Of a stretch of DNA of 64,000 nt, positions 3,423-27,126 are shown one piece after another. The number at the start of each line of letters is the position of its first letter. Positions within the stretch are counted from its first letter, which is position 1. The translations under genes and the position numbers were made by a program. The DNA is from an uncultured Gammaproteobacteria bacterium. GTDB lineage: Bacteria; Pseudomonadota; Gammaproteobacteria; CAMYKB01. The stretch lies in contig CAMYKB010000003.1 in assembly GCA_947258875.1 (NCBI GenBank), forward strand, positions 12,358 to 76,357, read 5' to 3'. The notes under the pieces were generated by a model, which searched no databases, was not told the DNA's origin, and was given only the letters and a program-made list of their open reading frames with translations.

Positions 3423-4469
3423 ATGAACGTGCTTCATCGCCAACAGTTCATCGCATTATTGTTGTGCCTGATCATTTCGGCACTTGTCTTTGCTGGTTCC
3501 GCGCGTGCTGGACATGACGGCGCCGCCTATCATGAGTTCTCAGCTGATGCCCGGCAACAGGGCCGCGAAGCGCATCTTGCTTTTGCCTGGACTTACGGTT
3601 TCTATGAAGAGCCTAAGGTTCTGAATTACTTGCGTTCAGTCGGGGCGCGTGTCACTGAGCGCCTGCCTTACCGCATCAGGTTTTATATCCTCGATACAGA
3701 TGATGTCAATGCCTATGCAGCCCCTGGCGGCTGTATTTATGTCACGCGGGGCATGTTGGTACATTTAAATTCTGAGGCTGAGTTGGCAGCGGTGCTGGGT
3801 CATGAACTGGCGCATGTCATGGGTGATATCGGTGGGCTTGATGAGGTGTCCAGGAATACCTTGCGTGCAATGCTCGATGACGGTGCTGAGTTAAATCTTA
3901 GTAATACGGGCGACACTCAGGCACAACCCGATATGTTGCATACTAGGATGCGCAGATACGAGTTGGAGGCGGACCGGATATCGTTCGAGTTGCTGGTGCT
4001 GAGAGGCTATAACGCGCGTGCTCTGATCGATGTAATTCGCATGTTTGACGATTATGACCGCATGGTTAATGACATTCCTAAATCACATGCGCCACACCAT
4101 CAGGGGCTGGTGCACCTGTCCAACATTCATCCCGATAATCAGCGGCGCATTATGATGCTGCAGGAGGCTGTGTCTCGTTTCGATGCACAACATGCTGAAG
4201 ATGGCCGCGGCCGTTATCTGGCAATGATTGAGAATATCCGCTTTGGTAATCAGCCCAATTTAAAGGCAACGGATTCCGCATCGGATTTTCTGCAGAGGCA
4301 TGAAGTACGCAAGTTAAAACTGCTGCGTGTAGAAGGTGGTGCGCGTTATGCCGATCTGGCTGCTGACAGTAGTCTGGGGGATTCTGCCGAAGCCGTGTTG
4401 CGCACCCTGAATCGCGCTTATCCTGTGGGAGAACCTATATCAGGCGAATTTATCAAAATAATCGAATAG
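3423..4469 (+). CDS. M48 family zinc metallopeptidase (secreted)
   Basis: HEXXH motif LGHELAHVMGD. Signal peptide present. Conserved C-terminal tail LRTLNRAYPVGEP shared with the downstream paralog. Confidence 0.8.
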   Translation: MNVLHRQQFIALLLCLIISALVFAGSARAGHDGAAYHEFSADARQQGREAHLAFAWTYGFYEEPKVLNYLRSVGARVTERLPYRIRFYILDTDDVNAYAAPGGCIYVTRGMLVHLNSEAELAAVLGHELAHVMGDIGGLDEVSRNTLRAMLDDGAELNLSNTGDTQAQPDMLHTRMRRYELEADRISFELLVLRGYNARALIDVIRMFDDYDRMVNDIPKSHAPHHQGLVHLSNIHPDNQRRIMMLQEAVSRFDAQHAEDGRGRYLAMIENIRFGNQPNLKATDSASDFLQRHEVRKLKLLRVEGGARYADLAADSSLGDSAEAVLRTLNRAYPVGEPISGEFIKIIE

Positions 4470-4877: not shown

Positions 4878-5924
4878 ATGCGTTGGTTTATAGCTTGCAC
4901 TTGTTTGCTACTGACCGCCTGTGCCACAAGCAATAATGCATTGCAGCCCACTTCACTGGCACCCACCCGTGCTTATGATGCGGCCGATCAGCATCGCAAT
5001 GCTGAGGCCAACGAGCGCTTCAACGAGCTATTCGGCTTCTATGAAAACAAAGCGTTGCATCATTATGTGCGCGCAGTAGGTTCGCGAGTCAGCGCGCACC
5101 TGCCCTACGATTTCAAATTTATTATTCTCGATACGGATTACGTTAATGCCTTTTCGGTGTCGGGTGGAGATATCTATATTACACGCGGCATGTTGGCGCA
5201 TCTCGCTACCGAAGCCGAACTCGCAGCCGTGTTGGCGCATGAGGTTGCTCATGTTGTAACGCAGCACAGTGTGCGGAACCATCAAACTATTCCCGCCACA
5301 CCTAAATTTACCAAGTTTTTCGCGAACTGGTCCGGTACGCAAAAATTTGAGGACGGTGTCAGACAAGGACGGACTTCCGGGGCGGTGCGCGGCGCAGCTC
5401 AGCAAGACGAATTAATGGCCGATCGCCTGGCCATCGATTACCTGAAAAAGAGTGGTTACCAGACTTCCGCCGTGCTGGGTATGTTGCGCCTGATCGAAAG
5501 TGTGCAGCAGCTTGAAAAAGAGCTGGCGACTTATGTTGAAAGCCCAAAATTTAACGGTCAGATGCTTACTGGCCATCCCGCTATCGGGCAACGTTATGCT
5601 GAAGTGGCCAAGTGGACCGAAACCGCGGATGTTGTGCAGAATCAGCGAGATCGTAAGCGTTACCTGGACATCATTGAAGGTATGGAATATGGCAACGATA
5701 TTCAAGATCCGCGCATGTATGCCTTGGGAACCAATGACATGCAACAGCAGCAGTCACAGCAGTTGCGCATCCAAGTGGTTGCAGCGGGTGATGGCGAAAC
5801 ATACGCCGAGCTATCCAGGTATTGCCGCCTGCAAAACAATGCCGAAGCCATAGTACGTACCCTGAATAGGGCCTACCCTGAGGGTGAGCCACAGCCGGGC
5901 CAGCTCGTCAAGATCGTCAAGTAA
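4878..5924 (+). CDS. M48 family zinc metallopeptidase, lipoprotein (tandem paralog of 3423..4469)
   Basis: Lipobox LLTACATS. HEXXH motif LAHEVAHVVTQH. Same length (348 aa) and shared C-terminal motif VRTLNRAYPEGEP. Confidence 0.8.
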   Translation: MRWFIACTCLLLTACATSNNALQPTSLAPTRAYDAADQHRNAEANERFNELFGFYENKALHHYVRAVGSRVSAHLPYDFKFIILDTDYVNAFSVSGGDIYITRGMLAHLATEAELAAVLAHEVAHVVTQHSVRNHQTIPATPKFTKFFANWSGTQKFEDGVRQGRTSGAVRGAAQQDELMADRLAIDYLKKSGYQTSAVLGMLRLIESVQQLEKELATYVESPKFNGQMLTGHPAIGQRYAEVAKWTETADVVQNQRDRKRYLDIIEGMEYGNDIQDPRMYALGTNDMQQQQSQQLRIQVVAAGDGETYAELSRYCRLQNNAEAIVRTLNRAYPEGEPQPGQLVKIVK

Positions 5925-9527: not shown

Positions 9528-10055
9528 TCAGCCTTGGCTCAGTCGCGTGGAAAGCTCGCGGGCGGCACGGTTCTGGTTGCGCGAACGTTCATCGCGCATG
9601 GCATCGACCAGCACCAGCAGTTCATATAGACCGCTATCATCCATGGCGGCGTCGGGCACGGATTTATACAGTGGCGAAAATGCGTAGCCCCGCACAGGGC
9701 CCCTAGGGTGCGGCCATACCGGTGGCAGGTCCTCGTTGGGTTTGTCGCCGCCGGCCAGCGGTGGCCCCGCATAACTGGTCGGTACGCCGAGAGTCAGTTC
9801 ACCGCGATCCGGTGGGAAGGCGAACTTGATGCCATGCACCAGGAACTCCTGCAGGGCCATGATGACGGGTCTGGGATGGGCGGCTTGTTCGCTGGATGCC
9901 GCCAACAGGCGGGCGCGGCGGCCGCGTTTGACCGCGGCATTAATCTCAGAGGCGCTCATATGCAGTTCAGCCGAGAGGCGCTGATATGACCAGGACTCCT
10001 GGCCCAAAGCCACGAGCTTGAGCGCCACCACGACATCCTGAGGCTTCAGAATCAT
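9528..10055 (-). CDS. Hypothetical protein, possible winged-helix regulator, divergent from the DUF4062 operon
   Basis: 175 aa. The N-terminal ~45 aa (VVVALKLVALGQESWSYQRLSAELHMSASEINAAVKR) look HTH-like. Shares a ~190 bp divergent intergenic region with the 10247 gene. Confidence 0.4.
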   Translation of the reverse strand: MILKPQDVVVALKLVALGQESWSYQRLSAELHMSASEINAAVKRGRRARLLAASSEQAAHPRPVIMALQEFLVHGIKFAFPPDRGELTLGVPTSYAGPPLAGGDKPNEDLPPVWPHPRGPVRGYAFSPLYKSVPDAAMDDSGLYELLVLVDAMRDERSRNQNRAARELSTRLSQG

Positions 10056-10246
10056 AGGCTTAGTCTATTCGCGATCAGCGAATTAAGCAAGGCATCGCTA
10101 AAATGAGCGCAAATAGTGAGGCCGGCGGTTGTTCAATAACCTTGGAGTTTAGGTAAAAGGGCTTCTATTATGCCTATACTTAAAAAAAAGAATCAATCAG
10201 GACCAGCAGTATCGGCGCCCAGTTGGTTACACATACAGGGAGCGGT

Positions 10247-11599
10247 ATGTACCAGGTTTATATCTCGTCGACTTATACAGATCTGCAGGATTTCCGTGCT
10301 ATCGCGGCCAAGGCTGTGCGTCATCTGCAGTGCCGCGCGGTCGCGATGGAGGACTACCTGGCCAGCGATGAGCGCCCGCTCGACCGCTGTCTGTCGGATG
10401 TGCGCGCCAGTAATGTGTATGTCGGTTTGTTCGCCCGGCGCTATGGCTTCACACCGCCCGGCCATGACAAGAGCGTCACCCACCTGGAATATGAGGAAGC
10501 CGGCCGGGCTGGTATACCGCGCCTGATATTTATCCTCGATGAGGCGGTGGACTGGCCGGATTCAAACTGTGATCCAGATCCTTCAGCGATCCGGCAACTG
10601 CGCACAGCACTACAGGAAAAGCACCTCGTCAGTACCTTTCGCAGTGGCGATGAGCTTGATGCCCGCCTGACGGCTGCGCTGAGCCAGGAATTGCTGAAGC
10701 GCGGCGGCAGTGGCAAGGTCGAAATACCGGAATTATTGCCCTATATGAGTGACCGCAGCCGGCAGCGTGACCAGTTGGCCGATGCGCTGGATGTCCACCT
10801 CGACAAGCGGCCACGGCGGCCCTTTGTCGCGATCGTCTATGGCGATGAACGCGAGGCGCACAGCGCCTTCCTGGAACGGCTGGAGCGGGTGACGTTCCCC
10901 GATCTGCTCGGGCTGAGTGCGGAAGCAGGGCCGGTGCATCATCTCGATCTGCGCTGGAGCGAACCTGGAGGTTCCCTGGACGAACGCGAACGACGCCTGC
11001 AGTGCCGTCTTTCCGAAAGCCTGACCGGCGAGCGCCGCGCGGATACACAGACCATGGCACAGGAACTTGCCCGGCACCGCTGCGCGGTGATGATTTCCAC
11101 CTCGATTCTGAGTGCCGACTGGCAGGCGGACGAGGCGAAACTCGTGCAACACTGGCTCAAGCTGTGGAAGGCCTGGCCGGACCTGCCACCTGGTCAGAGG
11201 TTGGTCATTGTATTGAGTTTTCATCTTAAGGACTGTTCGCAGGCCTCGTTCTGGGCGCATCGCAAACTCATCAAGAAGAATCGATGCGTCTGCGAATTCG
11301 TGACCGAACTCGAGCGGCTTGCCGGTGACGATCTATCGCTTGTAAGCCTCGACAGGCTGGAAGCTATACGCGAGTCTGATGTGCTGAACTGGCTGGAAGA
11401 GCATGCCGGGAAGTTCTGCCGTGAATCCCGTGGTGCGATCCGTGACCCACTGGTGCTCGCAGAACAGCTCAAGCCCTGGCTGCGCGAATTTTTTCGCAAG
11501 GAGGGTGTAGCGGACGAATCGGGTGGTATTCATATGGAGGAGCTGGCGCGTGAACTGCGGCGCCAGCTGCACCGCTGTTTAAACGAAGGAGGAATCTGA
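10247..11599 (+). CDS. DUF4062 (TIR-like) domain protein with C-terminal degenerate P-loop/STAND-like region
   Basis: N-terminal MYQVYISSTYTDLQDFRAIAAKAV...NVYVGLFARRYG is the DUF4062 signature. GGGAGCGG RBS before the ATG at 10247. Segment PFVAIVYGDEREAHSAFLERL looks like an NTPase strand-1/P-loop position lacking GK[ST]. Stop is 3 nt before the next gene. Confidence 0.7.
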   Translation: MYQVYISSTYTDLQDFRAIAAKAVRHLQCRAVAMEDYLASDERPLDRCLSDVRASNVYVGLFARRYGFTPPGHDKSVTHLEYEEAGRAGIPRLIFILDEAVDWPDSNCDPDPSAIRQLRTALQEKHLVSTFRSGDELDARLTAALSQELLKRGGSGKVEIPELLPYMSDRSRQRDQLADALDVHLDKRPRRPFVAIVYGDEREAHSAFLERLERVTFPDLLGLSAEAGPVHHLDLRWSEPGGSLDERERRLQCRLSESLTGERRADTQTMAQELARHRCAVMISTSILSADWQADEAKLVQHWLKLWKAWPDLPPGQRLVIVLSFHLKDCSQASFWAHRKLIKKNRCVCEFVTELERLAGDDLSLVSLDRLEAIRESDVLNWLEEHAGKFCRESRGAIRDPLVLAEQLKPWLREFFRKEGVADESGGIHMEELARELRRQLHRCLNEGGI

Positions 11600-11602
11600 C
11601 CC

Positions 11603-12598
11603 ATGGCAAACGCCAACTGGTATCAAGGCACGGGAGCACAAAGCACAACGGCGGTCGACCTGCCGGCATCGCTACTGGATCGGCACGCCAATCCGGCAGG
11701 CTATTTGGCTGATCCCGGTCTCGTAGACGCGGTCAACGTCGCGCTGCATCTTGGTCAACCCCTGCTGTTGACCGGGCAACCAGGTACCGGCAAGACCCAG
11801 CTCGCCAACAGCCTCGCCTGGGAACTCGGCTACGAGCCGTTGCTCAAGTTCGAGGCCAAGTCGACCAGCGTTGCGCGCGATCTGTTCTACACCTACGACA
11901 CCCTGGGCCGCTTCCACGCCGTGCATACCGGCCAGGGCGCTGCCGATAGCCTCGACTATATCCGCTTCAACGCCCTGGGGCTGGCGATCCTGCGCGCCAA
12001 CGATCCCGCCGACGTGGCCCAGCTGCTGGCCGATAATACGCAACATACCGGGCAGCAGCGCTCGGTGGTGTTGATCGATGAAATCGACAAGGCGCCGCGC
12101 GATTTCCCCAACGATCTATTGAACGAAGTGGAGGGCATGTATTTCAGGATCCCCGAGCTCGGCAATGCGACCGTGACCTCGGCGCCTGAGTTGCGGCCGA
12201 TCCTGGTGCTGACCAGTAATTCGGAAAAGAACCTGTCCGAAGCCTTTCTGCGGCGCTGCGTCTTCTACGACATCCCCTTTCCTGATCGCAAGCGTCTCAC
12301 CCACATTGTGCACTCGCGGCTGGGCGAGGCGATTACGGGGCAGGGGGCGCTGCTGGAGGATGCACTCAACCTGTTCGAACGCCTGCGCGATCCGGCCAGT
12401 GGCCTTCATAAGAAACCTTCGACGGGCGAATTGCTTGCCTGGCTGCAGGTACTTGTCACGCATTCGCAAGACAACGATGACTACATCCGCACTGCAGCCA
12501 TGGTCGAGCCGGCGCTTGCTGCGTTGATCAAGACCACCGAAGACCGGCCGAAAGCGCGCGAACTGCTCAAGGACTGGTTGAAAACGAAACCGGCGTGA
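11603..12598 (+). CDS. MoxR-family AAA+ ATPase
   Basis: Walker A LLTGQPGTGKTQLA. Walker B VVLIDEIDKA. Sensor/Arg finger region LVLTSNSEKNLSEAFLRRC. Stop codon overlaps the GTG start of the next gene (GTGA). Confidence 0.9.
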   Translation: MANANWYQGTGAQSTTAVDLPASLLDRHANPAGYLADPGLVDAVNVALHLGQPLLLTGQPGTGKTQLANSLAWELGYEPLLKFEAKSTSVARDLFYTYDTLGRFHAVHTGQGAADSLDYIRFNALGLAILRANDPADVAQLLADNTQHTGQQRSVVLIDEIDKAPRDFPNDLLNEVEGMYFRIPELGNATVTSAPELRPILVLTSNSEKNLSEAFLRRCVFYDIPFPDRKRLTHIVHSRLGEAITGQGALLEDALNLFERLRDPASGLHKKPSTGELLAWLQVLVTHSQDNDDYIRTAAMVEPALAALIKTTEDRPKARELLKDWLKTKPA

Positions 12599-15500
12599 GC
12601 ACGACCTCCGGCAACACGTCGATTGATCCCTCTGTCGAACCGGGAGACGCGGTAACGCTTGATGGCGACAACCTGCTTTCCCTGCTCGATAGCCTGCGAC
12701 ATGACGGGTTTCCCATCGGCGTTAAGGAATATATCACCGCACAGGAAGTCGCCATCGCCTGCAGTGATGATTATGGCATCGACCCAACGCGGCTACGCAA
12801 CTGGCTGGCGCCGGTCCTGTGCACTAACCCCGACGAACAGAGATTGTTTTACCAGCGCTTCGCCGACTGGTGGGTGCAGCGGCAACCGGTAACCGCTATA
12901 CACACGGTTGAACCAGCGCCGGTAAAAACCGAGCTTGACGAAGATGTACAACGCGCACGTCCCTGGAAGTGGGTGGCACTTGCGGTCGGGTTGATTGCAG
13001 TAGCAGTGCTTGTTCCGCCGCTGCTGAAGCAGCCCGAAAATATTACACCGCCGCCAGTCGTGTCGGGGACCGAACCATCGCAGCCAGTGCGTCCCGACCC
13101 GTCTGTTTCGGTTGAGCAGGAGCCGGTTGGGCCGCAATTGCTCGTCACGGGTGAGGTTAGGGATATTGATGGACGGGTGATTGACGGCGCGACGGTGGTA
13201 GCGGTGAAGGAGTTGAAAGGACATGATGACCATGTTTGGTCTATAAACTTCAGCCCGGATGACACACGCGTGGTTACGGCGTCAAGAGATAAAACAGCGC
13301 GCATCTGGGAGGCAGTCAGCGGGCGCGAGCTTGCACGATTGGCGCATGATAAGTGGATCCAGTCGGCCGTTTTCGGTCCGAATGGCAGGCGCGTGCTCAC
13401 GGCGTCACTAGACGGCACAGCGCGTATCTGGGATGCTGTCAGCGGGCGCGAGCTTGCACGATTGGTGCATGATGGTTGGGTCAGTTCAGCCGTTTTCGGT
13501 CCGAATGGCAGGCGCGTGCTCACGGCGTCACTAGACGGTACTGCACGCATCTGGGACGCGGATAGCGGGCGCGAGCTGAGGCGATTGCCGGGTACGGAAG
13601 GGATCCTTTCCGCTGTGTTTAGCCCGGATGGCAAGCTAATTGCCACAAACGGCGTTGGCGCGAAGCTCCTGCACTGGGCCGGTAGCGACTCCACCGGCAA
13701 CTTCGATCTCACCTCCAACCTGATCGGCGGCACCCGGCTCCGGGTTTCCCACCCTGACTATCAGGATGCCTCATTGCACGATATACCCGATGGTTTCGGC
13801 AAGTTAACTGTCGAGGCCAGCCTGGCGCCACGCCCGGCACAGTGGCTGGAGGTATTTATACGCAATCGTGAGCTGACCCGTGTCACGCTCACTCTGCTGC
13901 CATTGCTGGTTGTTACCGCCTGGTGGTTGTGGCGGCGCAAACGTCGGCAGCTGATCCTGGAGCGGCGCACGGTACGCAACGTTGACGCGCTTGCAGGTGT
14001 TGCGATGCCCGAGCCGCAGCACAACCTGTATCGCGACGAGTCCTTTGTGCGCGCACGCATCGAGGCGCGGCGGCACCAGGCAGGCGGGCAAGGCGATCTC
14101 GATGCTGATGCCACTGTCGACGAAACGGTGCGGCAGCTCGGCTGGTTCTCGCCGGTTTACAAGACGCGTCTGCGCCTGCCGGCCTATCTGGCGTTGATCG
14201 ACCGCAGCGGCTTCCGCGATCAGCAGGCACATCTGATCGACGAATTCCTCGACTGTCTGGAAGAAGGTGGCGTGACGGTCGACCGTTATTACTTCGATCG
14301 CGATCCACGCATGTGTGTCACAGCAGTGAGTGGCGACAGCACCCGGCGCGCGGTGCGTGAACTCGCCGGCCGTTATCCGCAGCATCGCCTGTTGCTGTTT
14401 AGCGATGGCAGTGGACTGCTTGATCCCGTGACCGGCCGGCCTGCAACCTGGACAGAACTGTTTTCCGCCTGGCGCGAACGTGCGCTGATGACACCGGTGC
14501 CGGCCTTTCACTGGTCATCACGCGAGGTCGAGCTGGCGCGGTTGGGTTGTAGCGTGTTACCCGCGACACCTGAGGGTCTGTTGGCCTTTGTCGAACAGCT
14601 GGATGTGCCGGACAGTATTGTGCTGCCGCCAACGACGCACTGGCGTGCGCCATTCCCCGAAATCATCGCGGCGCATCCGGCGCGTTGGTTGCAACGCAAT
14701 GAACCGCAGCCGGAGGACAGTGACGAACTGCTGCGTCAGCTGCGGCGTTATCTGGGTGACGACAGTTACCGCTGGCTGTGTGCGCTGGCTGTTTATCCCG
14801 AACTCGACTGGTACCTGACGCTGTATCTTGGTTTGCATCTGCAGCGTGAGAATGGCACGCCGGTACTCGACGAAACGGCGCTCCTGAGTCTGGTGCGTCT
14901 GCCCTGGCTGCGACGCGGCAACATGCCTGACTGGTTGCGCCTGCGTCTCATGGCCGAACTGTCCAGCGATGATGAAAACACCGTGCGCGGGTTTTTGCGC
15001 GAACTGTTGCGCGCCCGACTGGAGGCGCCCGGTAGTCGCTTCCGCCTGGATATCGCGCATCCATCCGACAACATGCAGCGGCGCGGCTGGACCCGGTTCT
15101 TTTCCGATCTGCTGCGTACCGAGCCTGATGATAGTCCGCTGCAGGATCGCGTATTCGTCAATTTTCTGCTCGGCAAGCGTCCGCAGCGCTTGCAGGTGCT
15201 GGCGCCGCGCAACTGGCATCGCTGGGTTTATGAACGGGGTTTGAGTGCATTGGGTTTGCGTGAACGCACAGGGTTGTTGCTGGCGGCCAGCACATCTGTG
15301 CTGCTGGCGGTCAGCGCCTTTTCGCTGATTGATCTTGCCAAGGCAATACAGGCGGGCGGTAACGACTCGCAGATTGTCCAGCGCGACTGGCAACCGGCGG
15401 ACGAGCAGGCTCCACCACAGATTAAAGATGTTTTCGTGGAGAAATTTGGTGGTGGCTCTGGTATTCGCTATTCAGTACGCGATCTCAAGCTCAACGGTGA

Positions 15501-16653
15501 GGGTAACAACATTCGCCTGGCACAGGGCGGTCAGGTGAAAGCGACTCTGGAAATCAATCACGACTGTCGCGAATGCGGCGGCGCCATCAATCAGATCATC
15601 GTTGGCCTGGCCGGTGAAGACAGGGCGCAGGCCTGCGTCTGGAACGGTGGGCAGTCCAGTCGCGGCTGGCAAACGGTATCGTTCACACTCAGGATTCCGC
15701 AAGCACCGGGGAGCTACGAGGTGCGTACCCGCTACGCCCAGGCCTACAACTGTAAAGATGCAATCGGCTGGTGGAAGATAGACCGTTCCCAGGGACCAGG
15801 CGAGCAATCGACCATCGGCGTGGTGGTCGTTGAAGCTGTCTCGCAGCAAAACGATACCCGGCAGACGACAGCTAAACAACAGCCCAAGGCATCGGACGTC
15901 GTTGCAACGTTGAACGAAAAATGGCTCGCGAACGTCCTGCCTTTCTATAAAAAGGCTATCGAGGGACGTTATCCTTTCGATCTGAAAAGTGAGAAGAGCG
16001 TGACCTTGAAAGATTTCGGCATGTTCTTCGGTGAAGGCGGAATTGTGCAGCGCTTCACTGAACAAGAGCTGGCGCCCTACCTGGATACCTCGGGTGGTCA
16101 ATGGCGTTGGCGTGCTGAAGCGCAGGGTTTTTCAAGCGCATCATTAGTCGAGCTTCAACGCGCGAACCGCATCCGCGCAGCGTTCTTCCAGGACGGCGGG
16201 GAAATACCGTTGCTGCGGTTCAGCCTTAAACCCAGTCAACTCGACAAGAAGGCTGTTCGCTTCACGCTGGAGATTGACGGGCAACGCCTTCAATATGCGC
16301 ATGGCCCGAAACGTACCACAGACATAACATGGCCGGGCAACACCAGGCTCAAGCGCGCACTGTACACGTTTGAAGGTCTGGATGGTAAAAGCGCGAGCGT
16401 TAAGGAGGAGGGTGCGTGGGCATGGTTGAAGATTCTGGACCAGGCCAAGATTAGTGCAACGAGGGGCCAGGATGTTTCGCGTGTAACCTTCAGTAAGAAT
16501 AGTCTTTCCGCTAGCTTCGATCTGCAGACAAGCAAAGGAATAAACCCTTTCGACCAAGACTTGCGGAAATTCCATTGTCCGCAGCGTTTAAGTTCAGGTG
16601 GCAGCAGTGAACTGTCTCCGCCTCAGCCACCAACAATTATCAGATCGAAATAA
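12595..16653 (+). CDS. Large multi-domain membrane protein: TM – WD40 repeats – TM – vWA-like – TM – IcmF/TssM C-terminal-like domain
   Basis: 1352 aa. TM helices at aa ~123-143, ~428-446 and ~893-912. Four WD40 blades, aa ~205-360 (GH...TASRDKTARIWEA, TASLDGTARIWDA x2). vWA-like strands LALIDRSGF and LLLFSDGSG. C-terminal ~230 aa contain GAWAWLKILDQAKI, IDGQRLQYAHGP...ITWPG and NPFDQDLRKFHCPQRL, patterns I recognise from the TssM/IcmF periplasmic C-terminal domain. Translationally coupled to the MoxR gene. Confidence 0.8.
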   Translation: MSTTSGNTSIDPSVEPGDAVTLDGDNLLSLLDSLRHDGFPIGVKEYITAQEVAIACSDDYGIDPTRLRNWLAPVLCTNPDEQRLFYQRFADWWVQRQPVTAIHTVEPAPVKTELDEDVQRARPWKWVALAVGLIAVAVLVPPLLKQPENITPPPVVSGTEPSQPVRPDPSVSVEQEPVGPQLLVTGEVRDIDGRVIDGATVVAVKELKGHDDHVWSINFSPDDTRVVTASRDKTARIWEAVSGRELARLAHDKWIQSAVFGPNGRRVLTASLDGTARIWDAVSGRELARLVHDGWVSSAVFGPNGRRVLTASLDGTARIWDADSGRELRRLPGTEGILSAVFSPDGKLIATNGVGAKLLHWAGSDSTGNFDLTSNLIGGTRLRVSHPDYQDASLHDIPDGFGKLTVEASLAPRPAQWLEVFIRNRELTRVTLTLLPLLVVTAWWLWRRKRRQLILERRTVRNVDALAGVAMPEPQHNLYRDESFVRARIEARRHQAGGQGDLDADATVDETVRQLGWFSPVYKTRLRLPAYLALIDRSGFRDQQAHLIDEFLDCLEEGGVTVDRYYFDRDPRMCVTAVSGDSTRRAVRELAGRYPQHRLLLFSDGSGLLDPVTGRPATWTELFSAWRERALMTPVPAFHWSSREVELARLGCSVLPATPEGLLAFVEQLDVPDSIVLPPTTHWRAPFPEIIAAHPARWLQRNEPQPEDSDELLRQLRRYLGDDSYRWLCALAVYPELDWYLTLYLGLHLQRENGTPVLDETALLSLVRLPWLRRGNMPDWLRLRLMAELSSDDENTVRGFLRELLRARLEAPGSRFRLDIAHPSDNMQRRGWTRFFSDLLRTEPDDSPLQDRVFVNFLLGKRPQRLQVLAPRNWHRWVYERGLSALGLRERTGLLLAASTSVLLAVSAFSLIDLAKAIQAGGNDSQIVQRDWQPADEQAPPQIKDVFVEKFGGGSGIRYSVRDLKLNGEGNNIRLAQGGQVKATLEINHDCRECGGAINQIIVGLAGEDRAQACVWNGGQSSRGWQTVSFTLRIPQAPGSYEVRTRYAQAYNCKDAIGWWKIDRSQGPGEQSTIGVVVVEAVSQQNDTRQTTAKQQPKASDVVATLNEKWLANVLPFYKKAIEGRYPFDLKSEKSVTLKDFGMFFGEGGIVQRFTEQELAPYLDTSGGQWRWRAEAQGFSSASLVELQRANRIRAAFFQDGGEIPLLRFSLKPSQLDKKAVRFTLEIDGQRLQYAHGPKRTTDITWPGNTRLKRALYTFEGLDGKSASVKEEGAWAWLKILDQAKISATRGQDVSRVTFSKNSLSASFDLQTSKGINPFDQDLRKFHCPQRLSSGGSSELSPPQPPTIIRSK
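13313..13560. repeat. Near-identical tandem ~123 bp nucleotide repeats encoding WD40 blades
   Basis: gtcagcgggcgcgagcttgcacgattgg(c/t)gcatgat...gccgttttcggtccgaatggcaggcgcgtgctcacggcgtcactagacgg occurs twice almost perfectly (13313-13435, 13436-13558), with a diverged third copy following. Confidence 0.85.
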
Positions 16654-16794
16654 TCGGCAGAAACATTAGGTGGGAGAATCGATCGATTATCTGCAATGTC
16701 TGAACGAACGGTATTAGCCGACTATCGAGGTCCGACCAGGCATTTAACAATTCGTCGGCTTGATCCGCCGAGGGCGACTGCCTAATGCCTAGGG

Positions 16795-17397
16795 CTAGGG
16801 CGCAAAGGACAGTGTGGAAAGTGCGCCCTGAATAATGTCTTTCGCCCGCGCATACTCATTGAAAAGGAATACTGAATAGGCATCCGCCTGTTCGTTTTTG
16901 TGGATCCCGATCAGTAGCGCCTGGCTGTAGCTAGCGGAAAATTGCGGGTCGACATCAAATACCGCTGCCGCGGCCCAGTTCGCGTTAAACAGCTCACGCG
17001 CCTGCGACTGCTGATATTCCGTATTCGGTGTATTTCCGCCATTCGACATCTGCGCGGTCAACGATTCAAACAGCAATGGAAAAAGATGGTTGGGTTCGGG
17101 CGCCGCATTGTGGGGGTCATTGTAATCAATAGAGATTCGCGCTAGTGGACGGATCACGAACCGTATCTCGAGTTCACCCGAGACATGTTTCAATGCACGT
17201 TCATAGTGAAGTACTGGATTGGCCGCGGGTTCAATGTCGGTAAAATCCGGGGGCGGCTCAAATCGCAGGCCGGATTCCTTAAGCAACTGTTCGAATAGTG
17301 CCTGGGAAGATTCCGCAGAACTTGAGGCGGTTGTCGTCAGCGCAGGCGCGACTAGCAGCAACACCAACAGCCACTGTCTTGATGGCACACCTGTCAT
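16795..17397 (-). CDS. Hypothetical secreted protein
   Basis: 200 aa with signal peptide. 4 bp overlap with the upstream TPR gene, giving an operon with the multihaem cytochrome. Confidence 0.5.
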   Translation of the reverse strand: MTGVPSRQWLLVLLLVAPALTTTASSSAESSQALFEQLLKESGLRFEPPPDFTDIEPAANPVLHYERALKHVSGELEIRFVIRPLARISIDYNDPHNAAPEPNHLFPLLFESLTAQMSNGGNTPNTEYQQSQARELFNANWAAAAVFDVDPQFSASYSQALLIGIHKNEQADAYSVFLFNEYARAKDIIQGALSTLSFAP

Positions 17398-18155
17398 GAA
17401 AGATCTGCTTTATTTGCCGGTACATCCTCTGCTTGCCATCGCTGTAATAGTGCTTTGGCGGCATCCTTCCATTCTTCAGAAGGCGCTATCTCCAGAAAAC
17501 GCTTGAGGTCGGCGATGGCCAGTGCCCGGTTGCCCATTACATCATGCACTGAAGCACGGTTGAAATATGGTGCTGCAGAGTGTGGATCCGCCGCAACACA
17601 GGCATCAAAGTCCTCCAGCGCCTGCGGGTATCTGCCTGCGTTAAAGGCAAGCGAACCGCGGTTGAAACGCGCAGCGATAAACCCGCTGTCTGTTTCGATG
17701 GCTTTATCGAGGTCTGCCATCGCCTCATCAATGCGGCCGAAATTGCGGTAGGCCTGGGCGCGATTGGTGAGAAACATCGGGTTGTGCGCATCCAGCTCCA
17801 GCGCTCTGTTAAGGTCGGCCAGTGCCGCCGAACTACGTCCCTGTTCCAGTAACAGGCTGCCGCGCACGCCATGCAAGTTTGCGTTATCCGGATACATTTC
17901 TACGGCCTGGTTGAGGCTATCTATGGCTTGCGTCGCACGGCCCTCAGCCAGGTGCTGCAGGGCGACCTGAACATGCTTGTCCGGCGTCAGGCTGGCGTGA
18001 GGATCATAGCTGCTGTGCGGGCGCACACGCGGGGCATCGGTCCCGGTATTAGGGATTTGCTGAACGATGGCTTCAGACTCGACTTGTGCGTCAGCAGTCG
18101 ACTTACCGGGGCCGCTGTCACAAGCAGACAGGCTTATGGTGACGAGCGTCGCCAT
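17394..18155 (-). CDS. TPR-repeat lipoprotein
   Basis: Lipobox LVTISLSACDSG. Multiple TPR motifs (AxxxYxxGxxxEA pattern repeated). Start chosen at MATLV (ATG 18155) to avoid overlap with the cytochrome gene. Confidence 0.6.
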   Translation of the reverse strand: MATLVTISLSACDSGPGKSTADAQVESEAIVQQIPNTGTDAPRVRPHSSYDPHASLTPDKHVQVALQHLAEGRATQAIDSLNQAVEMYPDNANLHGVRGSLLLEQGRSSAALADLNRALELDAHNPMFLTNRAQAYRNFGRIDEAMADLDKAIETDSGFIAARFNRGSLAFNAGRYPQALEDFDACVAADPHSAAPYFNRASVHDVMGNRALAIADLKRFLEIAPSEEWKDAAKALLQRWQAEDVPANKADLS

Positions 18156-18223: not shown

Positions 18224-20605
18224 TTATTTGGTCTCGCTGTAGGCCTTGAGCAATTTGTTCATTAGCTCGATGTGCTGCGCGTCGTTCAGCTGACCTTTGG
18301 TGGACACTTTTGCCCACAACTCTGCATTGGTCATTTCACGATGGCAGCCCATGCACAATCCGGTACGATCCATGGCGTCACGCATCTCTTTGGGTAATGC
18401 GCGCGATAACGGCCAGTGTGTGCCGACTGTCTGAACCTGTTGGTCATCCTTGATAATCGTCGACCAGTCAAAATCCAGGGCCTCAATCTTGGGAATCTGG
18501 ATCTGGTAGTTCCTGGGGATGACTTTACCGGTCTTCTGATCAATCAGGTCTTCAACGATATCCACCGGATAACGCGTCTGGAATACACCACCGGAAATAC
18601 CGTACCCCATTGCCTTCGGATTGTTATGGCAGGACTCGCAGGTACGGGCCTTGCGCTGTGCCGAATGCGGTTGCACCGGTGCCATATCAAGTGCCAACGG
18701 AGTACGCTCCTGTCCCAGCTCTTTCTGCTCGTCGTACGATAAAGCTATCTGGTCGAGAGCAACGGTTCTGCCGTCACGCGCTTTAACGGTGTAAACGATC
18801 TGGCAGCCCGGCATTAATGGGGTAACACGGCCCTCACCGTTGATACCCAGTACCGGTTCTTCCCAACGCAGGTAAGCACGAGTTTCATACACCTTACCAG
18901 GACTCTGAATACCTTTTACGCCTAGCGGTGACTCAGCGGTTGAACCGTCCGGGTTGCGTTGACTGCCGGATGCAATCCAGTCGGTATCATGTTTAGGTTT
19001 ACCATCTTTGTCTTTGCCGTAGTCAACCTGTACATGGCAGCCATAACATTGTGGCACCCATGATGCGTGGCAGGCATAACATTCCAGGCTTTCGGCATGT
19101 TTTTGGACCCGGCTCATGGCCACCATGGCATCCGGACTCTTCCACGCGTTGTCGATCTGCAGCTGTTTAAGCAACGGAACTTCAAAGTCATTGCCGGTTG
19201 CCGAATGCAACATGGCCTTCTTGCCATCCTTGACAACGTTGCCGAATGGATTGCCACGGGCGGTCTTCAGATAACCATCCTTCTTGTCGTACAGCGTGGC
19301 GAAGGCTGCGGTTTCCGGCAGTGGGCTCGTGGCCAGACCACGCGCTTTGCCGGTCAGTGGTTGGTCAAATTCCTCGCCATGTCCCAGCGGTAATTCCCAG
19401 GGGAATTGCTCTGGCGTGCCATGGCAGTCCTGGCATTCAATTTCCACCTGTGCCAGCGTGGTGCCCGGAATATTGCCATCACCATGCATGTCGATCGATG
19501 TATGACAATCCTGGCATAGCAGGCCACCTTCGGGATTCCCCGGGCGGCTCTTGATCTGGTGATGCAGATCATCAGAGATAAACAGGTACTGCTTGGTGTG
19601 CAGTTTTGGCTGTTTTTCGCCTTTCTCGTTGAACGGCGAACCGTAAGGGAACTCCATCAATCCCTGATACGTCACGCCGATACGCTTGCCGCGATTGTGG
19701 CAGGAGTTGCAGGTCTCGACGGGGATACCCGAATACTCAATACCACCATGAGTCACTTTGGACTTGCGAGTAGACTGTATCTGGTGGGTCAGCATGTGGC
19801 CCTTTTCTGTCTTGTCGATGGTCGGGTCATTACCTTCGTAGATGCCTTCATTGCCATAGGCTATGTGGCAGGCTGAACACCCCTGACCGCGGTAATCACC
19901 GCGTTTTTCACGGCCCTTGACTGTAACGTGGCAGCGTTGGCATTGCTGGCGCTGGTAGGTAAAGCCAGCAAGCTTCGGGTTTTTCTCGATGTCTTCGACC
20001 GATGGGTTGGGTATTTGCGACAATTCAGTGGGGAACTGTTCCTTGTGCGCGGCTATCATGTCCTTCATGTAGGCCTTGTAGTCATCGGTACCCACAGCAG
20101 GTACAGGTCCGTCACCGTCCTTGATATCATAATTACCCCAGGGAACCTTATGATTCTGCACCTCTTCGATGCCCCAGGTGTGCAGGTTGCCCTGAATCTT
20201 ACCGGCTTCGGTATTCATTAAGGATTTTTCCAGACGTTCAGAATAGCCCAGGTGGCAGGCGCTCTGACCACAGGTAAATTTGTTGACATCCATCGCCCCG
20301 GGATCTGGGTAAAACGTTTGCGGGCCGTTGGCTTGCTTTAGTGTCGCCGGTGAGCCGCTGTGAGCCGCTTTTGCCTCGCTTGCGCCTGGGTTGCCGCCAT
20401 GGCACATGACGCAACCTTGGCTATCCCCGTGCGATGAACCCAACGCCTTGATCATTGCCATCATGGCGCTGCCTTCCTGGCGTATCTGTTCGAGGCCGTT
20501 GTGACAACTCATGCAGCCTTCGCCGGCTCCGATCTTGGCATCTGCAGTGAACGTGATAAATAGCGTAACGAGGAATAAAGCTAGTGCCCTTGCGGTCGTT
20601 CCCAT
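18224..20605 (-). CDS. Multihaem c-type cytochrome (~12 haem-binding motifs), secreted
   Basis: 793 aa with signal peptide and GAGAGGG RBS. 11 CXXCH motifs (CMSCH, CVMCH, CQRCH, CSACH, CNSCH, CQDCH x2, CYACH, CYGCH, CESCH, CMGCH) plus one CX4CH (CGQSACH). Confidence 0.85.
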   Translation of the reverse strand: MGTTARALALFLVTLFITFTADAKIGAGEGCMSCHNGLEQIRQEGSAMMAMIKALGSSHGDSQGCVMCHGGNPGASEAKAAHSGSPATLKQANGPQTFYPDPGAMDVNKFTCGQSACHLGYSERLEKSLMNTEAGKIQGNLHTWGIEEVQNHKVPWGNYDIKDGDGPVPAVGTDDYKAYMKDMIAAHKEQFPTELSQIPNPSVEDIEKNPKLAGFTYQRQQCQRCHVTVKGREKRGDYRGQGCSACHIAYGNEGIYEGNDPTIDKTEKGHMLTHQIQSTRKSKVTHGGIEYSGIPVETCNSCHNRGKRIGVTYQGLMEFPYGSPFNEKGEKQPKLHTKQYLFISDDLHHQIKSRPGNPEGGLLCQDCHTSIDMHGDGNIPGTTLAQVEIECQDCHGTPEQFPWELPLGHGEEFDQPLTGKARGLATSPLPETAAFATLYDKKDGYLKTARGNPFGNVVKDGKKAMLHSATGNDFEVPLLKQLQIDNAWKSPDAMVAMSRVQKHAESLECYACHASWVPQCYGCHVQVDYGKDKDGKPKHDTDWIASGSQRNPDGSTAESPLGVKGIQSPGKVYETRAYLRWEEPVLGINGEGRVTPLMPGCQIVYTVKARDGRTVALDQIALSYDEQKELGQERTPLALDMAPVQPHSAQRKARTCESCHNNPKAMGYGISGGVFQTRYPVDIVEDLIDQKTGKVIPRNYQIQIPKIEALDFDWSTIIKDDQQVQTVGTHWPLSRALPKEMRDAMDRTGLCMGCHREMTNAELWAKVSTKGQLNDAQHIELMNKLLKAYSETK

Positions 20606-21013: not shown

Positions 21014-22558
21014 TTATTCCACTAACGCGGCCTGGATCACGCCGACGCGAATGCTGTTAAGCACGGCCTTATCTTTCGCCGGGCCCAACCCTGTAGGAAC
21101 CACTACGGCCTTGCCCGCGGCGAGGCTGCGAATATCGCGGGTGATCTGGCGGCGCTTTCCCTGTGCATCCGGGTATTGTACGGCGACCTTAACATTGCGC
21201 ACTGCATAGGATGTCGGGTTTTGTACCTGCACCACCACATAGCCGTTCTGATTGAGACCAACCCGGGTCTTAATGTAATTACCCGGGTTTTGCGGCAGAT
21301 CCAGTCGCAGCAGTGATTGCGAGGCCTGCTTGCCGGGTTCGGAGTTGGAACCCGCTGCTGCCTTGTAATATTTCAGGGCGCTGGCACGATCACCGGCGGC
21401 CAATGTCAGGTTGCCGAGTGAATTCAGCGCGGTCGCGGTGGGCAACAATTTAACACTTTGCTCGAGATCGCTGCGTGCACCGCTGCGATCACCAAGACGC
21501 TCGCGTGTGAGGCCGCGCTGTACGTAGTAATGAAAAAACTGATTGTTATACTGCAACGCCTTGTTGTAGTCGGCGAGTGCTGATTTGAGGTTGTTTTGCT
21601 GAAACTTTGCGTCGCCGAACAACGAATGAAATTGTGCCTCTCGCGGTTCCATACGAATGGCTTTTTGTGCCAGAGTCATCGCCTTACGGGTATCGCCCTT
21701 GGCCAGGGCTTTGCGGCCCTCGTCGTGGGCCTTGTAGGCTTCGCGGCTGCGTTTGATGTGCGCTATCTTGCTTTGATAGCGCTGTGTGCCCAGTTCTCCA
21801 CCTGATGGCAGGCTTTTCGCGTGTTCGATGTTGTTATCGACACGTTCCTGTGACGGCGGGTGGCTGGCAAACAGGCCGGATAACCAATCTGACCGCCGGC
21901 CTTCGGACAGGCGTACGAAGGTTTCTTGTAGGCTGATGGCGGCACGCGGATCGTAACCGGCTTTGGACATGTAGTTCATGCCATAAAAATCGGATTCGCG
22001 TTCCGCGTCACGGCCGTATTTTTGATTAAGCAGGCCCGCCGCAAGTTGCGCGCCACCGACAGCGAGATTGGCGTAATCGCTATCGCGTGCGGCAATGCCG
22101 GTTGCCATGATGGCGCCTTGCAGCAGCATGCCGCGTTCCATACCTTTGGCGCCATGACGTGCGGCGGCATGTACCACTTCGTGACCCAGTACCGCGGCAA
22201 CTTCAGCTTCGTTATTGAGTTCCACCAGCAGTCCACGGTTGACGGCGATTTTGCCGCCGGGCAGCGCCCATGCGTTAGGTGTGGAGTTGTTGAGTACCAC
22301 GAATTCATAGGGTAATTGCCGGTCACTGACGGCGGCCAGGCGGTTGCCGATACTCTGCACATAACGCGTCAGTTCCTGATCGACGTTGTATTGGCCACCC
22401 TGCATCTGCTGGCTCACCAAGTAGTTCTGTTTGCCCAGCTGGATTTCCTGGGCTTCAGACACCAATGTGAGTTCGCGTTCTCCCGTTACAGGATTAACGG
22501 CACAGCCCTGTAACGCAACCGCCGCAAGTATGAATGCATAAAGGATGTTTCGCATCAT
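21014..22558 (-). CDS. BepA/YfgC-like M48 metallopeptidase with C-terminal TPR domain, lipoprotein
   Basis: Lipobox ALQGCAV. HEXXH motif LGHEVVHAAARH. TPR-like C-terminal half. Start at MMRNILY (22558), preceded by GGGGA. Confidence 0.8.
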   Translation of the reverse strand: MMRNILYAFILAAVALQGCAVNPVTGERELTLVSEAQEIQLGKQNYLVSQQMQGGQYNVDQELTRYVQSIGNRLAAVSDRQLPYEFVVLNNSTPNAWALPGGKIAVNRGLLVELNNEAEVAAVLGHEVVHAAARHGAKGMERGMLLQGAIMATGIAARDSDYANLAVGGAQLAAGLLNQKYGRDAERESDFYGMNYMSKAGYDPRAAISLQETFVRLSEGRRSDWLSGLFASHPPSQERVDNNIEHAKSLPSGGELGTQRYQSKIAHIKRSREAYKAHDEGRKALAKGDTRKAMTLAQKAIRMEPREAQFHSLFGDAKFQQNNLKSALADYNKALQYNNQFFHYYVQRGLTRERLGDRSGARSDLEQSVKLLPTATALNSLGNLTLAAGDRASALKYYKAAAGSNSEPGKQASQSLLRLDLPQNPGNYIKTRVGLNQNGYVVVQVQNPTSYAVRNVKVAVQYPDAQGKRRQITRDIRSLAAGKAVVVPTGLGPAKDKAVLNSIRVGVIQAALVE

Positions 22559-22829
22559 GTAGATCGTCCCCGGTGGGTTTGGGTAAGTGCACAGGCAATA
22601 TTGCCTGGAACCTATCTCAAAGTTTGTCTCACACGCCAATTCAGTGCTGCGGTCCGCGCCTTTATGTCATCAGGTATTGTTATGACGCGCGATCCACGAG
22701 TTGAGATAGATTCTGGTAGTTAATTTATACGGACTCTAGCATGTGTTTGTGCCTCCGGTGCCTGGTGAGCGCCGGGATCAGCGGGGATTTCACAAAACGT
22801 TACAAAATAGAGACCGGGCAGGGCAGTGA

Positions 22830-23321
22830 CTACAGACCGATATTGACGCCAATGCCAAAGTGGACTTTGGGTTTGTCATATTCATGTGTTTCGTTGGACC
22901 ACAGATGCATGTCTTCGGCATTCACGACCGGATAGTTGTAATCAGCCTGGCCAACCTTGCCGGGGCGTGTTTCTGTAATGGTGCCCGCCACGGTAATGCG
23001 CTTGCCATTATGGAGGTCCATGGTCTCGAGGTAACCGTCCTGTGACACCATGAACCGCCCCGTTGGCGTGGAACGCAGTTTGGGTTGTTGCTTGCGGTCG
23101 AGTGGATAACCCAGTACTTCCACCAAGGTGCTGTTTTCCAGGTTGGTGCTACTGATGATCGTGCCACCCCATAACACGCGTTGTCCGGTGGTGCTTTGTG
23201 TAGATGCGCGTGCGGGAGTTAGACTGCTGTCGATGTTGGCTGTTTCGAAACGCGGTGTACTGGCACAGGCCGAAAGCAAACCTATGTACAATGCTATAAT
23301 CACAAAGCGGCTGATAATCAT
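22830..23321 (-). CDS. Slp family outer-membrane lipoprotein
   Basis: Lipobox LLSACAS. Slp hallmark QRVLWGGTIISSTN...GRFMV...YNYPVV. Confidence 0.7.
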   Translation of the reverse strand: MIISRFVIIALYIGLLSACASTPRFETANIDSSLTPARASTQSTTGQRVLWGGTIISSTNLENSTLVEVLGYPLDRKQQPKLRSTPTGRFMVSQDGYLETMDLHNGKRITVAGTITETRPGKVGQADYNYPVVNAEDMHLWSNETHEYDKPKVHFGIGVNIGL

Positions 23322-23329
23322 TATGGTAC

Positions 23330-23875
23330 TCACCAATAGTAGGGATGACGGCGGTAATATGGCCAGTAGAATGGGTCGTAATAGTATGGACGATACCAGG
23401 GATCATACCAGAATGGGTCGTAGTAGCGCGCGGGTTGCTCGACGTGTTTTTCCCATAAGTAATGACTGGTGACTGAAACCAGAGGGAAGTTATAGGCGTG
23501 TTCACCAATCTTGCCCTGTTCAGCACCGGTCAGGGTGCCTGATACGGTCATTTCGCGTCCCTTGGCATAGATGGCAGGATCGAGAAAACCATCCACCTGT
23601 GCAAGGAAACGGCCAGGGCTGCTGTCCTGTTCCAGTGGGCGGCCTGATCTGCCCAGATCACGCGCCACGATTTCCACCACGCTGTCCTGTTGACGGTTAG
23701 TCACTGACACAATGGTGCCACCCCAACGTACCTGGCTGCCGGTGAACTGTTGTGGATTGCTACGGACTTCGGCCACGCTCGGGGTATTGGTTCTGGCGCT
23801 GATCTCTTGTGGGACATTACTGGCGCAGGCCGTCAATAACAATCCTGCAATTAGCAGTGATAACAGCTGTTTCAT
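23330..23875 (-). CDS. Slp family outer-membrane lipoprotein with aromatic/Pro-rich C-terminal tail
   Basis: Lipobox LLTACAS. Hallmark SQVRWGGTIVSVTN...GRFLAQ...YNFPLV. Tail YYDPFWYDPWYRPYYYDPFYWPYYRRHPYYW. Confidence 0.7.
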   Translation of the reverse strand: MKQLLSLLIAGLLLTACASNVPQEISARTNTPSVAEVRSNPQQFTGSQVRWGGTIVSVTNRQQDSVVEIVARDLGRSGRPLEQDSSPGRFLAQVDGFLDPAIYAKGREMTVSGTLTGAEQGKIGEHAYNFPLVSVTSHYLWEKHVEQPARYYDPFWYDPWYRPYYYDPFYWPYYRRHPYYW

Positions 23876-23988
23876 GGTTTCCACCCTACCTTGATAGAGG
23901 TCTATGTTTGATAAGACAGGCCTATCGAAAAGGAGTTCTATAACCCAATAAGTCTACTTGGCCTGGCTGAACGCAAGCTTAACCTGCA

Positions 23989-27117: not shown

Positions 27118-27126
27118 GACGGCCCC

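Follow-up and report, generated by a model that had tools for sequence, protein, structure and literature searches.

An iSTAND-type MoxR-vWA operon whose vWA component, predicted to be membrane-threaded, ends in a TssM-like C-terminal module

We analysed a 64-kb stretch of contig CAMYKB010000003.1 from an uncultured gammaproteobacterium (the whole stretch is called the window below) and found that three adjacent genes at 10247-16653 form an operon encoding an iSTAND-type MoxR-vWA ternary conflict system, for which an anti-phage role is predicted. Gene 1 encodes a protein with a DUF4062 and an iSTAND domain, gene 2 a MoxR-like AAA+ ATPase and gene 3 a vWA protein with three predicted transmembrane (TM) helices. 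The system was identified from the Pfam matches of genes 1 and 2 (iSTAND and DUF4062; AAA and AAA_5), the synteny of four loci, the agreement with a published description of such systems (PMC7159879) and a census of effector domains in the vWA family. The best explanation of the evidence as a whole, to which we assign a probability of about 60%, is that the gene 3 protein is threaded through the inner membrane three times, carries a captured module of the type VI secretion system (T6SS) protein TssM, and serves as an envelope sensor or tether that gates an NADase. The system type itself has already been described. The novel elements, found in no paper that we searched, are the apparently captured TssM module and a WD40 array lodged in a periplasmic CarboxypepD_reg-like domain.

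The three-gene operon

Ternary systems with an iSTAND component have been described computationally (Kaur et al. 2020, eLife, PMC7159879; extended in PMC8195603). They consist of a MoxR ATPase, a vWA co-chaperone whose C-terminal domain varies and an inactive-STAND component that begins with a TIR or DRHyd-type domain (PMC7159879). The operon in the window has this three-gene core: an iSTAND gene is the neighbour, the vWA domain lies in the third protein, and that protein has an N-domain, a vWA-L linker and a variable C-terminal slot after the linker. About 28% of the vWA components carry N-terminal TM segments, and PEGA, OmpA, PASTA or Sel1 domains in the variable position typically follow a TM segment (PMC7159879); gene 3 resembles this membrane-anchored subset, in which wall-binding domains come after the TM segment. 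The order of the three genes is kept beside four metagenomic homologues (the L001-L005 set).

Gene 1, which an earlier note on this DNA had overlooked, joins DUF4062 (PF13271, E=2e-23) to iSTAND (PF19995, E=3.6e-15, above the cut-off of that model), and a motif search of it returned no P-loop or Walker A motif. Its mechanical open reading frame (ORF) begins with TTG at 10223, and its homologues align from the ATG at 10247; counted from the latter position, the protein is 76% identical to its orthologue at L001. Proteins with DUF4062 (Swarozyc) have been shown experimentally to be TIR-like NADases that act by abortive infection (bioRxiv 10.64898/2026.05.01.722283). The N-terminus of gene 1 matches the DUF4062 domain of KpSwz in the PDB (E=5e-6), and a glutamate, E81, aligns with the catalytic E97 of KpSwz, the two being related by an inferred residue offset. 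Swarozyc is a single protein activated by a phage portal via its own auxiliary domain, whereas the DUF4062 domain of gene 1 is fused to iSTAND in a MoxR-vWA operon.

The gene 2 protein has Pfam AAA and AAA_5 matches, a Walker A motif (GQPGTGKT at aa 58; aa, amino acid) and a Walker B motif (VVLIDEIDK at aa 155), and is 82% identical to its L001 orthologue. Genes 2 and 3 share 4 nucleotides (nt), the stop codon of the one overlapping the start of the other. The MoxR-specific model bpMoxR scored below significance against it (E=0.09), and its placement in the MoxR clade is suggested by context, synteny and the NorD match of its vWA partner. It also gave a partial NCBIfam match named 'MadB family ATPase', a name not traceable to any paper.

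PADLOC gave no system-level match for the operon, only generic ones, to the P-loop of the ATPase and to the WD40 repeats of gene 3. The 'beta-propeller-containing' MoxR-vWA subsystem (PMC7159879) was considered and rejected: an iSTAND gene is present, and the propeller repeats lie in a hairpin loop, not at the C-terminus. The GC content of the operon is 0.595, as against about 0.52 in both flanks, and its neighbours differ from those of related loci; both observations fit a horizontally acquired defence cassette. In two relatives with eight WD40 blades, a 151-aa SLATT_1/DUF4231 gene with two TM helices stands directly 3' of the vWA gene (L001 13517-13972; L003 13492-13947), and its product is predicted to be a nucleotide-responsive pore effector. 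A tblastn search found no trace of this gene at 16654-17400 of the window, and the locus of P0002, the closest relative of gene 3, also lacks it.

Topology and domains of the vWA protein

The gene 3 protein has exactly three strong hydropathy peaks (Kyte-Doolittle, 19-residue windows), at aa 126-144 (2.48), 427-445 (1.59) and 894-912 (2.20). The basic clusters RARPWKW and WRRKRRQ stand at aa 120-126 and 446-452, and 8 of the 15 residues that follow TM2 are K or R. The same pattern of charges was seen across the family. Averaged over 123-150 homologues, the number of K+R residues in the 15-residue flanks before and after each helix is 4.03 and 1.41 for TM1, 1.60 and 4.66 for TM2, and 2.88 and 1.33 for TM3. 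The domains that homologues carry in the corresponding segments point the same way. P0051 carries CarboxypepD_reg and four PASTA domains between TM1 and TM2, and PEGA beyond TM3; the segment after TM3 holds PASTA in P0008, OmpA in P0133, and an SLT transglycosylase followed by WD40 repeats in P0120. In P0131, which has no TM3 and whose C-terminal end is a cytoplasmic-type EAD2 adaptor, the hairpin loop is only 7 residues long, which forces the N-domain and the vWA domain onto the same side.

Because hydropathy, the positive-inside statistics of the family and the compartment logic of the homologues agree, a topology with the N-terminus inside, the TM1-TM2 loop outside, the vWA domain and linker inside and the last 440 aa outside is well supported as a prediction. 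A cytoplasmic partner ATPase fits the cytoplasmic placement of the vWA domain. The helices, the basic clusters and the order of compartments are thus those that the earlier note had proposed, as are the four WD40 blades in the loop and a vWA middle region served by the adjacent ATPase, treated below. A weaker, moderately hydrophobic peak at aa 729-746 was rejected as a fourth TM helix; it is conserved in members without detected TM helices (P0138) and buried in a confident part of the AlphaFold2 (AF2) model.

Pfam, searched with E values up to 10, returned nothing for the N-domain, the middle region (aa 447-892) or the beta-sandwich that follows TM3. The counterpart of aa 1-120 has been called a CoxE-like 4-helix domain (PMC7159879). 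A profile search of PDB sequences with the family of the middle region found no vWA entry, and gave a weak TetR-like helical match to part of the N-domain that was uninformative. The middle region was assigned by fold. An alignment of 30 family sequences was used for AF2 structure prediction, and the model had a mean predicted local distance difference test score (pLDDT) of 77, with values mostly of 82-95 over model residues 30-360 and dips to 61-78 in a few blocks. Foldseek gave only two strong matches, both to states of NorD (E 2.8e-4 and 1.7e-3), the vWA partner of the MoxR ATPase NorQ (PMC13036017). These results support, by two methods and at the level of the fold, a vWA domain in the middle region whose nearest solved relative is a vWA protein of the type that works with a MoxR ATPase.

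The vWA domain keeps part of the canonical metal-binding (MIDAS) site, which consists of DxSxS and, further on, Thr and Asp as metal ligands: it has D536-R-S538-G-F540, in which the last Ser of DxSxS is replaced, and D604 in LLLFSDGSG. Nearly all members of the family share D536, and the D of the consensus FxDG is kept in at least half and fewer than 90% of members. The domain also carries RYYFDRDPRMC at aa 564-574 (nt 14284-14316), an instance of the motif RYYFDxDPRxC, which hardly varies across the family and which the AF2 model shows as a long beta-hairpin. In the cryo-EM structure of NorQD, NorQ grips a finger of NorD and strains the linker (PMC13036017); by analogy, the RYYFDxDPRxC hairpin may correspond to this finger, which reaches into the pore of NorQ. 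The linker, for which we use the term vWA-L from PMC8195603, has pLDDT values mostly of 88-95 and a nearly invariant LPWLRxGxMPDWLR, and is conserved also in P0138.

Gene 3 and its ATPase thus share with NorQ-NorD and CoxD-CoxE an AAA+ gene adjacent and translationally coupled to a vWA gene, the best middle-domain Foldseek match (NorD) and, by analogy, a likely grip of the ATPase on the vWA domain that strains the linker. In contrast to NorD and CoxE, both soluble metal-insertion co-chaperones for respiratory enzymes, the vWA domain of gene 3 is held between two TM helices and linked to periplasmic modules as well as to an NADase-iSTAND partner.

The loop between TM1 and TM2 contains a CarboxypepD_reg-like beta-sandwich whose halves (aa 180-203 and 362-412) are split by the WD40 array. 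In the intact protein, Pfam CarboxypepD_reg matches only aa 184-209 (model positions 2-27). Once aa 205-361 were removed in silico, the match became contiguous and spanned positions 2-66 of 82 (E=4.6e-7), and P0120 holds an uninterrupted CarboxypepD_reg domain in its TM1-TM2 loop. On these grounds the array is an insertion inside the periplasmic domain, a feature absent from the earlier account. So is the reduction in the number of blades. The four of gene 3 fall short of the six to eight of a WD40 propeller that closes on itself in one chain; P0002 has seven, P0003, P0004, P0005 and P0007 have eight each, and P0008 has sixteen. Since the closest relatives carry seven or eight, the four-blade state is probably a lineage-specific reduction and no design feature of the family. 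At the level of DNA, blades 2 and 3 share 88% identity and the other pairs 34-56%; loss of blades through recombination between repeats is plausible, and a collapse of the repeats in the assembly is unlikely.

The Cys-rich beta-sandwich after TM3 has four invariant cysteines (C991, C994, C1014 and C1053) and the motifs CGGAINQIIVGLAGE and RAQACVWN, and its Foldseek matches, to a Wzt carbohydrate-binding domain and to Ig-like domains, were weak. Copies with 50-66% identity occur in unrelated proteins (L006 2506-5196, L007 around 10001-10438, L008 4901-6223 and L009 9836-10990), namely an 896-aa protein of the cyanobacterium Elainella saxicola, two proteins from alphaproteobacterial metagenome-assembled genomes (MAGs) and one from a deltaproteobacterial MAG with an apparent signal peptide. 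In P0003, an additional DUF3108 domain (PF11306, E 6e-22) lies between TM3 and this sandwich, at aa about 1140-1325; it is found also in P0004-P0007 and is absent from gene 3 and P0002.

The protein ends in a module homologous to the C-terminus of TssM. Pfam identified IcmF_helical (PF21070, E=1.6e-8) and IcmF_C (PF06744, E=5.9e-26), and the TssM model TIGR03348 matched with 225.6 bits (E=1e-66), over positions 933-1168 of 1168 only and below its cut-off of 388 bits. A phmmer search of the PDB aligned the module with residues 870-1105 of TssM from enteroaggregative Escherichia coli (EAEC) at E about 1e-9, with 4y7m among the matches. The Foldseek comparison that the earlier note had proposed was run with an AF2 model of aa 913-1352, and the nine best matches were all TssM C-terminal structures (E 3e-14 to 7.5e-10, 22-23% identity). 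A conserved GRYPF-type motif is kept. Sequence comparison thus confirms the last approximately 250 aa as a true homologue of the TssM C-terminus.

A profile search of 1.84 billion representative sequences for the family yielded 5306 clusters (50% identity) at E<=1e-3 and 3226 at E<=1e-30; 169 family sequences were analysed in detail, and a Pfam census was taken of 46 random representatives. Two TM helices precede the vWA core in 123 of the 169, and the exact layout of two helices before and one after the core (2+1) is the commonest, with 69 members. The TM1-TM2 loop varies from 7 residues (P0131, P0132) to several hundred. Across the family, the slot after the linker is filled by PASTA, PEGA, OmpA, SLT, ricin, GH43, EAD2, FGE-sulfatase, caspase or TPR domains; most of the sampled 2+1 members have other periplasmic domains (PASTA, PEGA/CarboxypepD_reg, OmpA, SLT, ricin lectin) or none. 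The census counted CarboxypepD_reg in 10 members, FGE-sulfatase in 5, TPR in 5, caspase in 3 and PASTA in 2, besides others, which reproduces the effector list of PMC7159879 (FGE-sulfatase, caspase, TPR, PASTA), and found no IcmF domain among the 46. IcmF_C was present in 7 of the 169 sampled members, P0001-P0007 only.

A homology search with the IcmF_C region by itself gave no matches. When metagenomes were scanned with patterns from the module, its own clade came first; the further matches, at 33-42% identity, were for the most part fragments. Those that were full-length ORFs (L016 and L021/L022) encode ordinary P-loop proteins of 1164-1198 aa; L016 scores 1229 bits against TIGR03348 and is 41.5% identical to the module, and L021 scores 1138 bits and is 33% identical. 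Because IcmF_C is confined to seven of the 169 members and the nearest outgroups are full-length TssM proteins, the simplest history would be the capture of the domain by one small clade into a variable periplasmic slot. The 2+1 layout is common in members without IcmF_C and hence was not inherited from TssM; the likeness in TM plan appears to predate the capture and to be convergent, the plan itself having come from the vWA family.

In its overall layout, gene 3 does resemble TssM/IcmF (TIGR03348; PDB 4y7m, 4y7o, 6hs7, 6ixh): both have a TM hairpin, a cytoplasmic nucleotide-dependent module, a third TM helix and a large periplasmic region, and gene 3 ends in the homologous helical and C2-like domains. 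This much of the TssM-like plan put forward in the earlier note stands. The further reading that it implies, a TssM-type protein in which the NTPase had been swapped for a vWA module, is not supported, as the homology covers only roughly the last 235 of 1168 model positions, about a fifth, TIGR03348 stays below its cut-off, the 2+1 layout is family-wide and IcmF_C is restricted to so few members. Unlike TssM, gene 3 has no P-loop NTPase between TM2 and TM3, where the vWA domain and helical linker stand instead, and the Pfam families listed for it include neither the IcmF-related PF06761 nor ImcF-related_N; ATPase activity is predicted to be supplied in trans by the MoxR protein via the vWA domain. 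Also unlike TssM, gene 3 has no tssJ, tssL, tssB, tssC, hcp or vgrG neighbours. As the earlier note had reported, the window lacks T6SS genes: Pfam detected no T6SS family in its other 59 greedy non-overlapping ORFs (>=70 aa), and the Pfam families listed for genes called at four homologous loci include none. In our reading, the gene 3 product is not part of a secretion system, and its TssM module is no relic of one.

In the described iSTAND ternary systems, by contrast, the slot that gene 3 fills with the TssM/IcmF C-terminal module and the Cys-rich sandwich holds other domains, and the WD40 array within the CarboxypepD_reg-like domain of the hairpin loop is likewise a difference. Neither the TssM module nor the Cys-rich sandwich is mentioned in the main texts of PMC7159879 and PMC8195603 or in the part of the supplement that was searched, and the literature searched contained no mention of IcmF or TssM in the context of these systems. 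The features are listed in Table 1.

Table 1 Coordinates of the operon genes and of the domains of gene 3 in the window
Feature	Position	Strand	Basis
Gene 1: DUF4062 (TIR-like NADase domain) + iSTAND, 450 aa	10247-11599	+	Pfam, orthologue alignment
Gene 2: MoxR-like AAA+ ATPase, 331 aa	11603-12598	+	Pfam AAA/AAA_5, motifs
Gene 3: three-TM vWA component, 1352 aa	12595-16653	+	ORF; protein identical to database entry P0001
N-terminal cytoplasmic domain (predicted), aa 1-120	12595-12954	+	BLAST conservation in at least 20 family members
TM1, aa about 124-144	12964-13026	+	Kyte-Doolittle peak
Periplasmic loop module (predicted), CarboxypepD_reg-like sandwich + WD40	13132-13830	+	Pfam, in-silico deletion
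Four WD40 repeats, 41 residues each, aa 198-361	13186-13677	+	Pfam WD40 E=5e-31, own hidden Markov model count
TM2, aa about 427-446, then WRRKRRQ	13873-13932	+	Kyte-Doolittle peak
Cytoplasmic vWA domain (predicted), aa about 510-672	14122-14610	+	Fold-level match
Helical linker (vWA-L), aa about 685-810	14647-15024	+	AF2 helical, family conservation
TM3, aa about 893-912	15271-15330	+	Kyte-Doolittle peak
Cys-rich beta-sandwich, mobile module, aa about 945-1080	15427-15834	+	AF2 all-beta, pLDDT 60-83
TssM C-terminal module: IcmF_helical aa 1104-1201 + IcmF_C aa 1209-1313	15904-16533	+	Pfam

Surroundings of the operon

The other genes of the window include housekeeping genes (a trp operon, rpe, rpiA, ilvA, rpsI) and genes for copper resistance, cytochromes, a porin and Slp lipoproteins; this gene content indicates that the host is Gram-negative. 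The ORFs that bracket the operon, at 16795-17397 (-) and 9528-10055 (-), match no Pfam family at E<=1e-6; one is 200 aa long with a signal-peptide-like N-terminus, and the other 175 aa. About 1.6 kb downstream of the operon, 18224-20605 (-) encodes a 793-aa multihaem c-type cytochrome with weak MtrC/MtrF-like and cytochrome c7 matches.

Three paralogous M48-family peptidase genes were found at 3423-4469, 4878-5924 and 21014-22639, two of them in tandem and one fused to TPR repeats; the third adjoins two tandem genes for Slp-family outer-membrane lipoproteins (22830-23884). Copper and heavy-metal resistance genes at 23989-30053, 35804-37147 and 42000-42530 encode a CusA-like RND pump, a CusB with HMBD and a CusF-like domain, an outer-membrane efflux protein, a multicopper oxidase, CopD and DUF411. 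A 165-aa ORF at 59339-59836 (-) consists almost entirely of KRKTAK/KKKKTAK repeats and resembles a histone H1-like lysine-rich protein. It sits on a tandem repeat array with a 15-nt period (59344-59720), and the 'FFFLAV' ORFs on the opposite strand are artefacts of this repeat.

Mechanism and alternative explanations

In the explanation that we favour, the gene 3 product would be an envelope-spanning sensor or tether whose periplasmic modules monitor the cell wall and the outer-membrane side. In the T6SS, the tip of TssM reaches the outer-membrane lipoprotein TssJ. A perturbation such as phage entry would shift the conformation of the unit formed by TM2, the vWA domain, the linker and TM3, and the cytoplasmic MoxR hexamer would grip and remodel this unit, as NorQ pulls NorD. 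The remodelling would license oligomerisation of iSTAND and activation of the DUF4062 NADase, with NAD+ depletion and abortive infection as the outcome, and the SLATT pore protein may be an added output in some relatives. This sensor reading follows the assignment of Dore et al., in which the protein with the vWA and variable domains is the proposed sensor, in the cytoplasm or the periplasm, and the third component is the effector. It departs from that of Kaur et al., who place sensing in the iSTAND component and effectors in the C-terminal domains of the vWA protein, the opposite direction (PMC7159879).

Several further points weigh against the explanation. WD40 repeats are unusual in the periplasm, and no TssJ-like lipoprotein partner is visible near the operon. 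The topology was drawn from hydropathy, charge counts and the domains of homologues rather than from a dedicated predictor. The MIDAS motif is incomplete, and the AF2 prediction for aa 913-1352 is of low quality (pLDDT 60.7, TM-score 0.45 to TssM), its match resting mainly on a sequence-like 3Di/AA signal. With four blades, and lacking both DUF3108 and SLATT, which some relatives have, the copy in the window may be functionally reduced. The literature searched held no experimental test of iSTAND ternary systems, and we infer both the defence role and the direction of signalling.

A more specific version of the sensor reading is put forward only tentatively. The protein would be a trans-envelope immune receptor, with the TssM tip at the outer membrane and the WD40/PEGA-like loop and Cys-rich sandwich touching the wall, and periplasmic changes would pass via TM2 and TM3 to a MoxR-held vWA domain that gates the TIR-like NADase. 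If true, this would be a defence that detects phage at the envelope before the genome enters, with a part of a secretion system reused as an antenna.

The alternative that survives best is an inside-out arrangement in the sense of Kaur et al., which we consider rather unlikely. Here the cytoplasmic iSTAND protein would sense, MoxR would remodel or release the vWA protein, and the periplasmic modules would be a deployed effector or an anchor, acting for example by opening or clogging the envelope or by tethering the complex to the wall and outer membrane. The published model does give the C-terminal position of the vWA protein to effectors (PMC7159879, PMC8195603), and NorQ exerts force on the linker of its partner (PMC13036017), while the linker of gene 3 runs straight into TM3. 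The TssM C-terminal domain is, moreover, the outer-membrane-proximal tip of the T6SS membrane complex (PDB 6hs7, 6ixh), and the arrangement parallels the proposal that TssM passes NTPase-driven changes to its periplasmic tip. The periplasmic domains of the family are, however, mostly binding modules (PASTA, PEGA, OmpA, lectins, TPR), with SLT in P0120 and GH43 in P0138 as enzymatic exceptions, and the iSTAND protein already carries an executioner of its own, the DUF4062 NADase. Dore et al., in addition, base their case for a sensor on the targeted hypermutation that such domains undergo.

It is improbable that gene 3 is a decaying or mis-assembled copy, that is, the remnant of an eight-blade form with DUF3108 and SLATT that arose through an in-frame deletion of blades or a collapse of repeats. 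Such a history would fit the seven or eight blades of the relatives and the sixteen of P0008, the 88% DNA identity of blades 2 and 3, which makes recombination between repeats plausible, and the absence from the window locus of the DUF3108 insert and SLATT gene seen at the P0003-P0007 loci. Yet the 1352-codon frame is intact, the 4-nt overlap of stop and start is kept and all family-invariant motifs are present, and repeats that share 52-88% DNA identity would hardly collapse during assembly. P0002 also lacks DUF3108 and SLATT and yet has seven blades, so both absences are normal variation.

More improbable still is a T6SS accessory or decoy, in which the module would bind TssJ or TssM of a T6SS whose genes lie elsewhere in the genome, and the system would control or watch the cell's own T6SS, or an incoming T6SS attack, and not phage: the module is 33-42% identical to real TssM C-termini, keeps the GRYPF-type motif, and has a counterpart region in EAEC that binds TssJ (PDB 4y7m, 4y7o), but T6SS families are missing from the 64 kb and from those listed at the four homologous loci, and the rest of the family fills the same slot with generic wall-binding modules.

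These results suggest that the outer-membrane-proximal module of TssM can be used outside the T6SS and the type IVB secretion system (T4BSS), which bears on its reading as an autonomous envelope-spanning or lipoprotein-binding unit. They also offer a specific operon, amenable to cloning, as an example of membrane-embedded MoxR-vWA defence, with predicted periplasmic sensing and predicted killing by a TIR-like NADase, the activity of whose family was demonstrated in 2026. Ternary systems are widespread, the vWA family alone comprising the 5306 clusters found here, and the direction from sensor to effector is disputed between two published proposals. With three genes whose products occupy separable compartments, this dispute would become directly testable.

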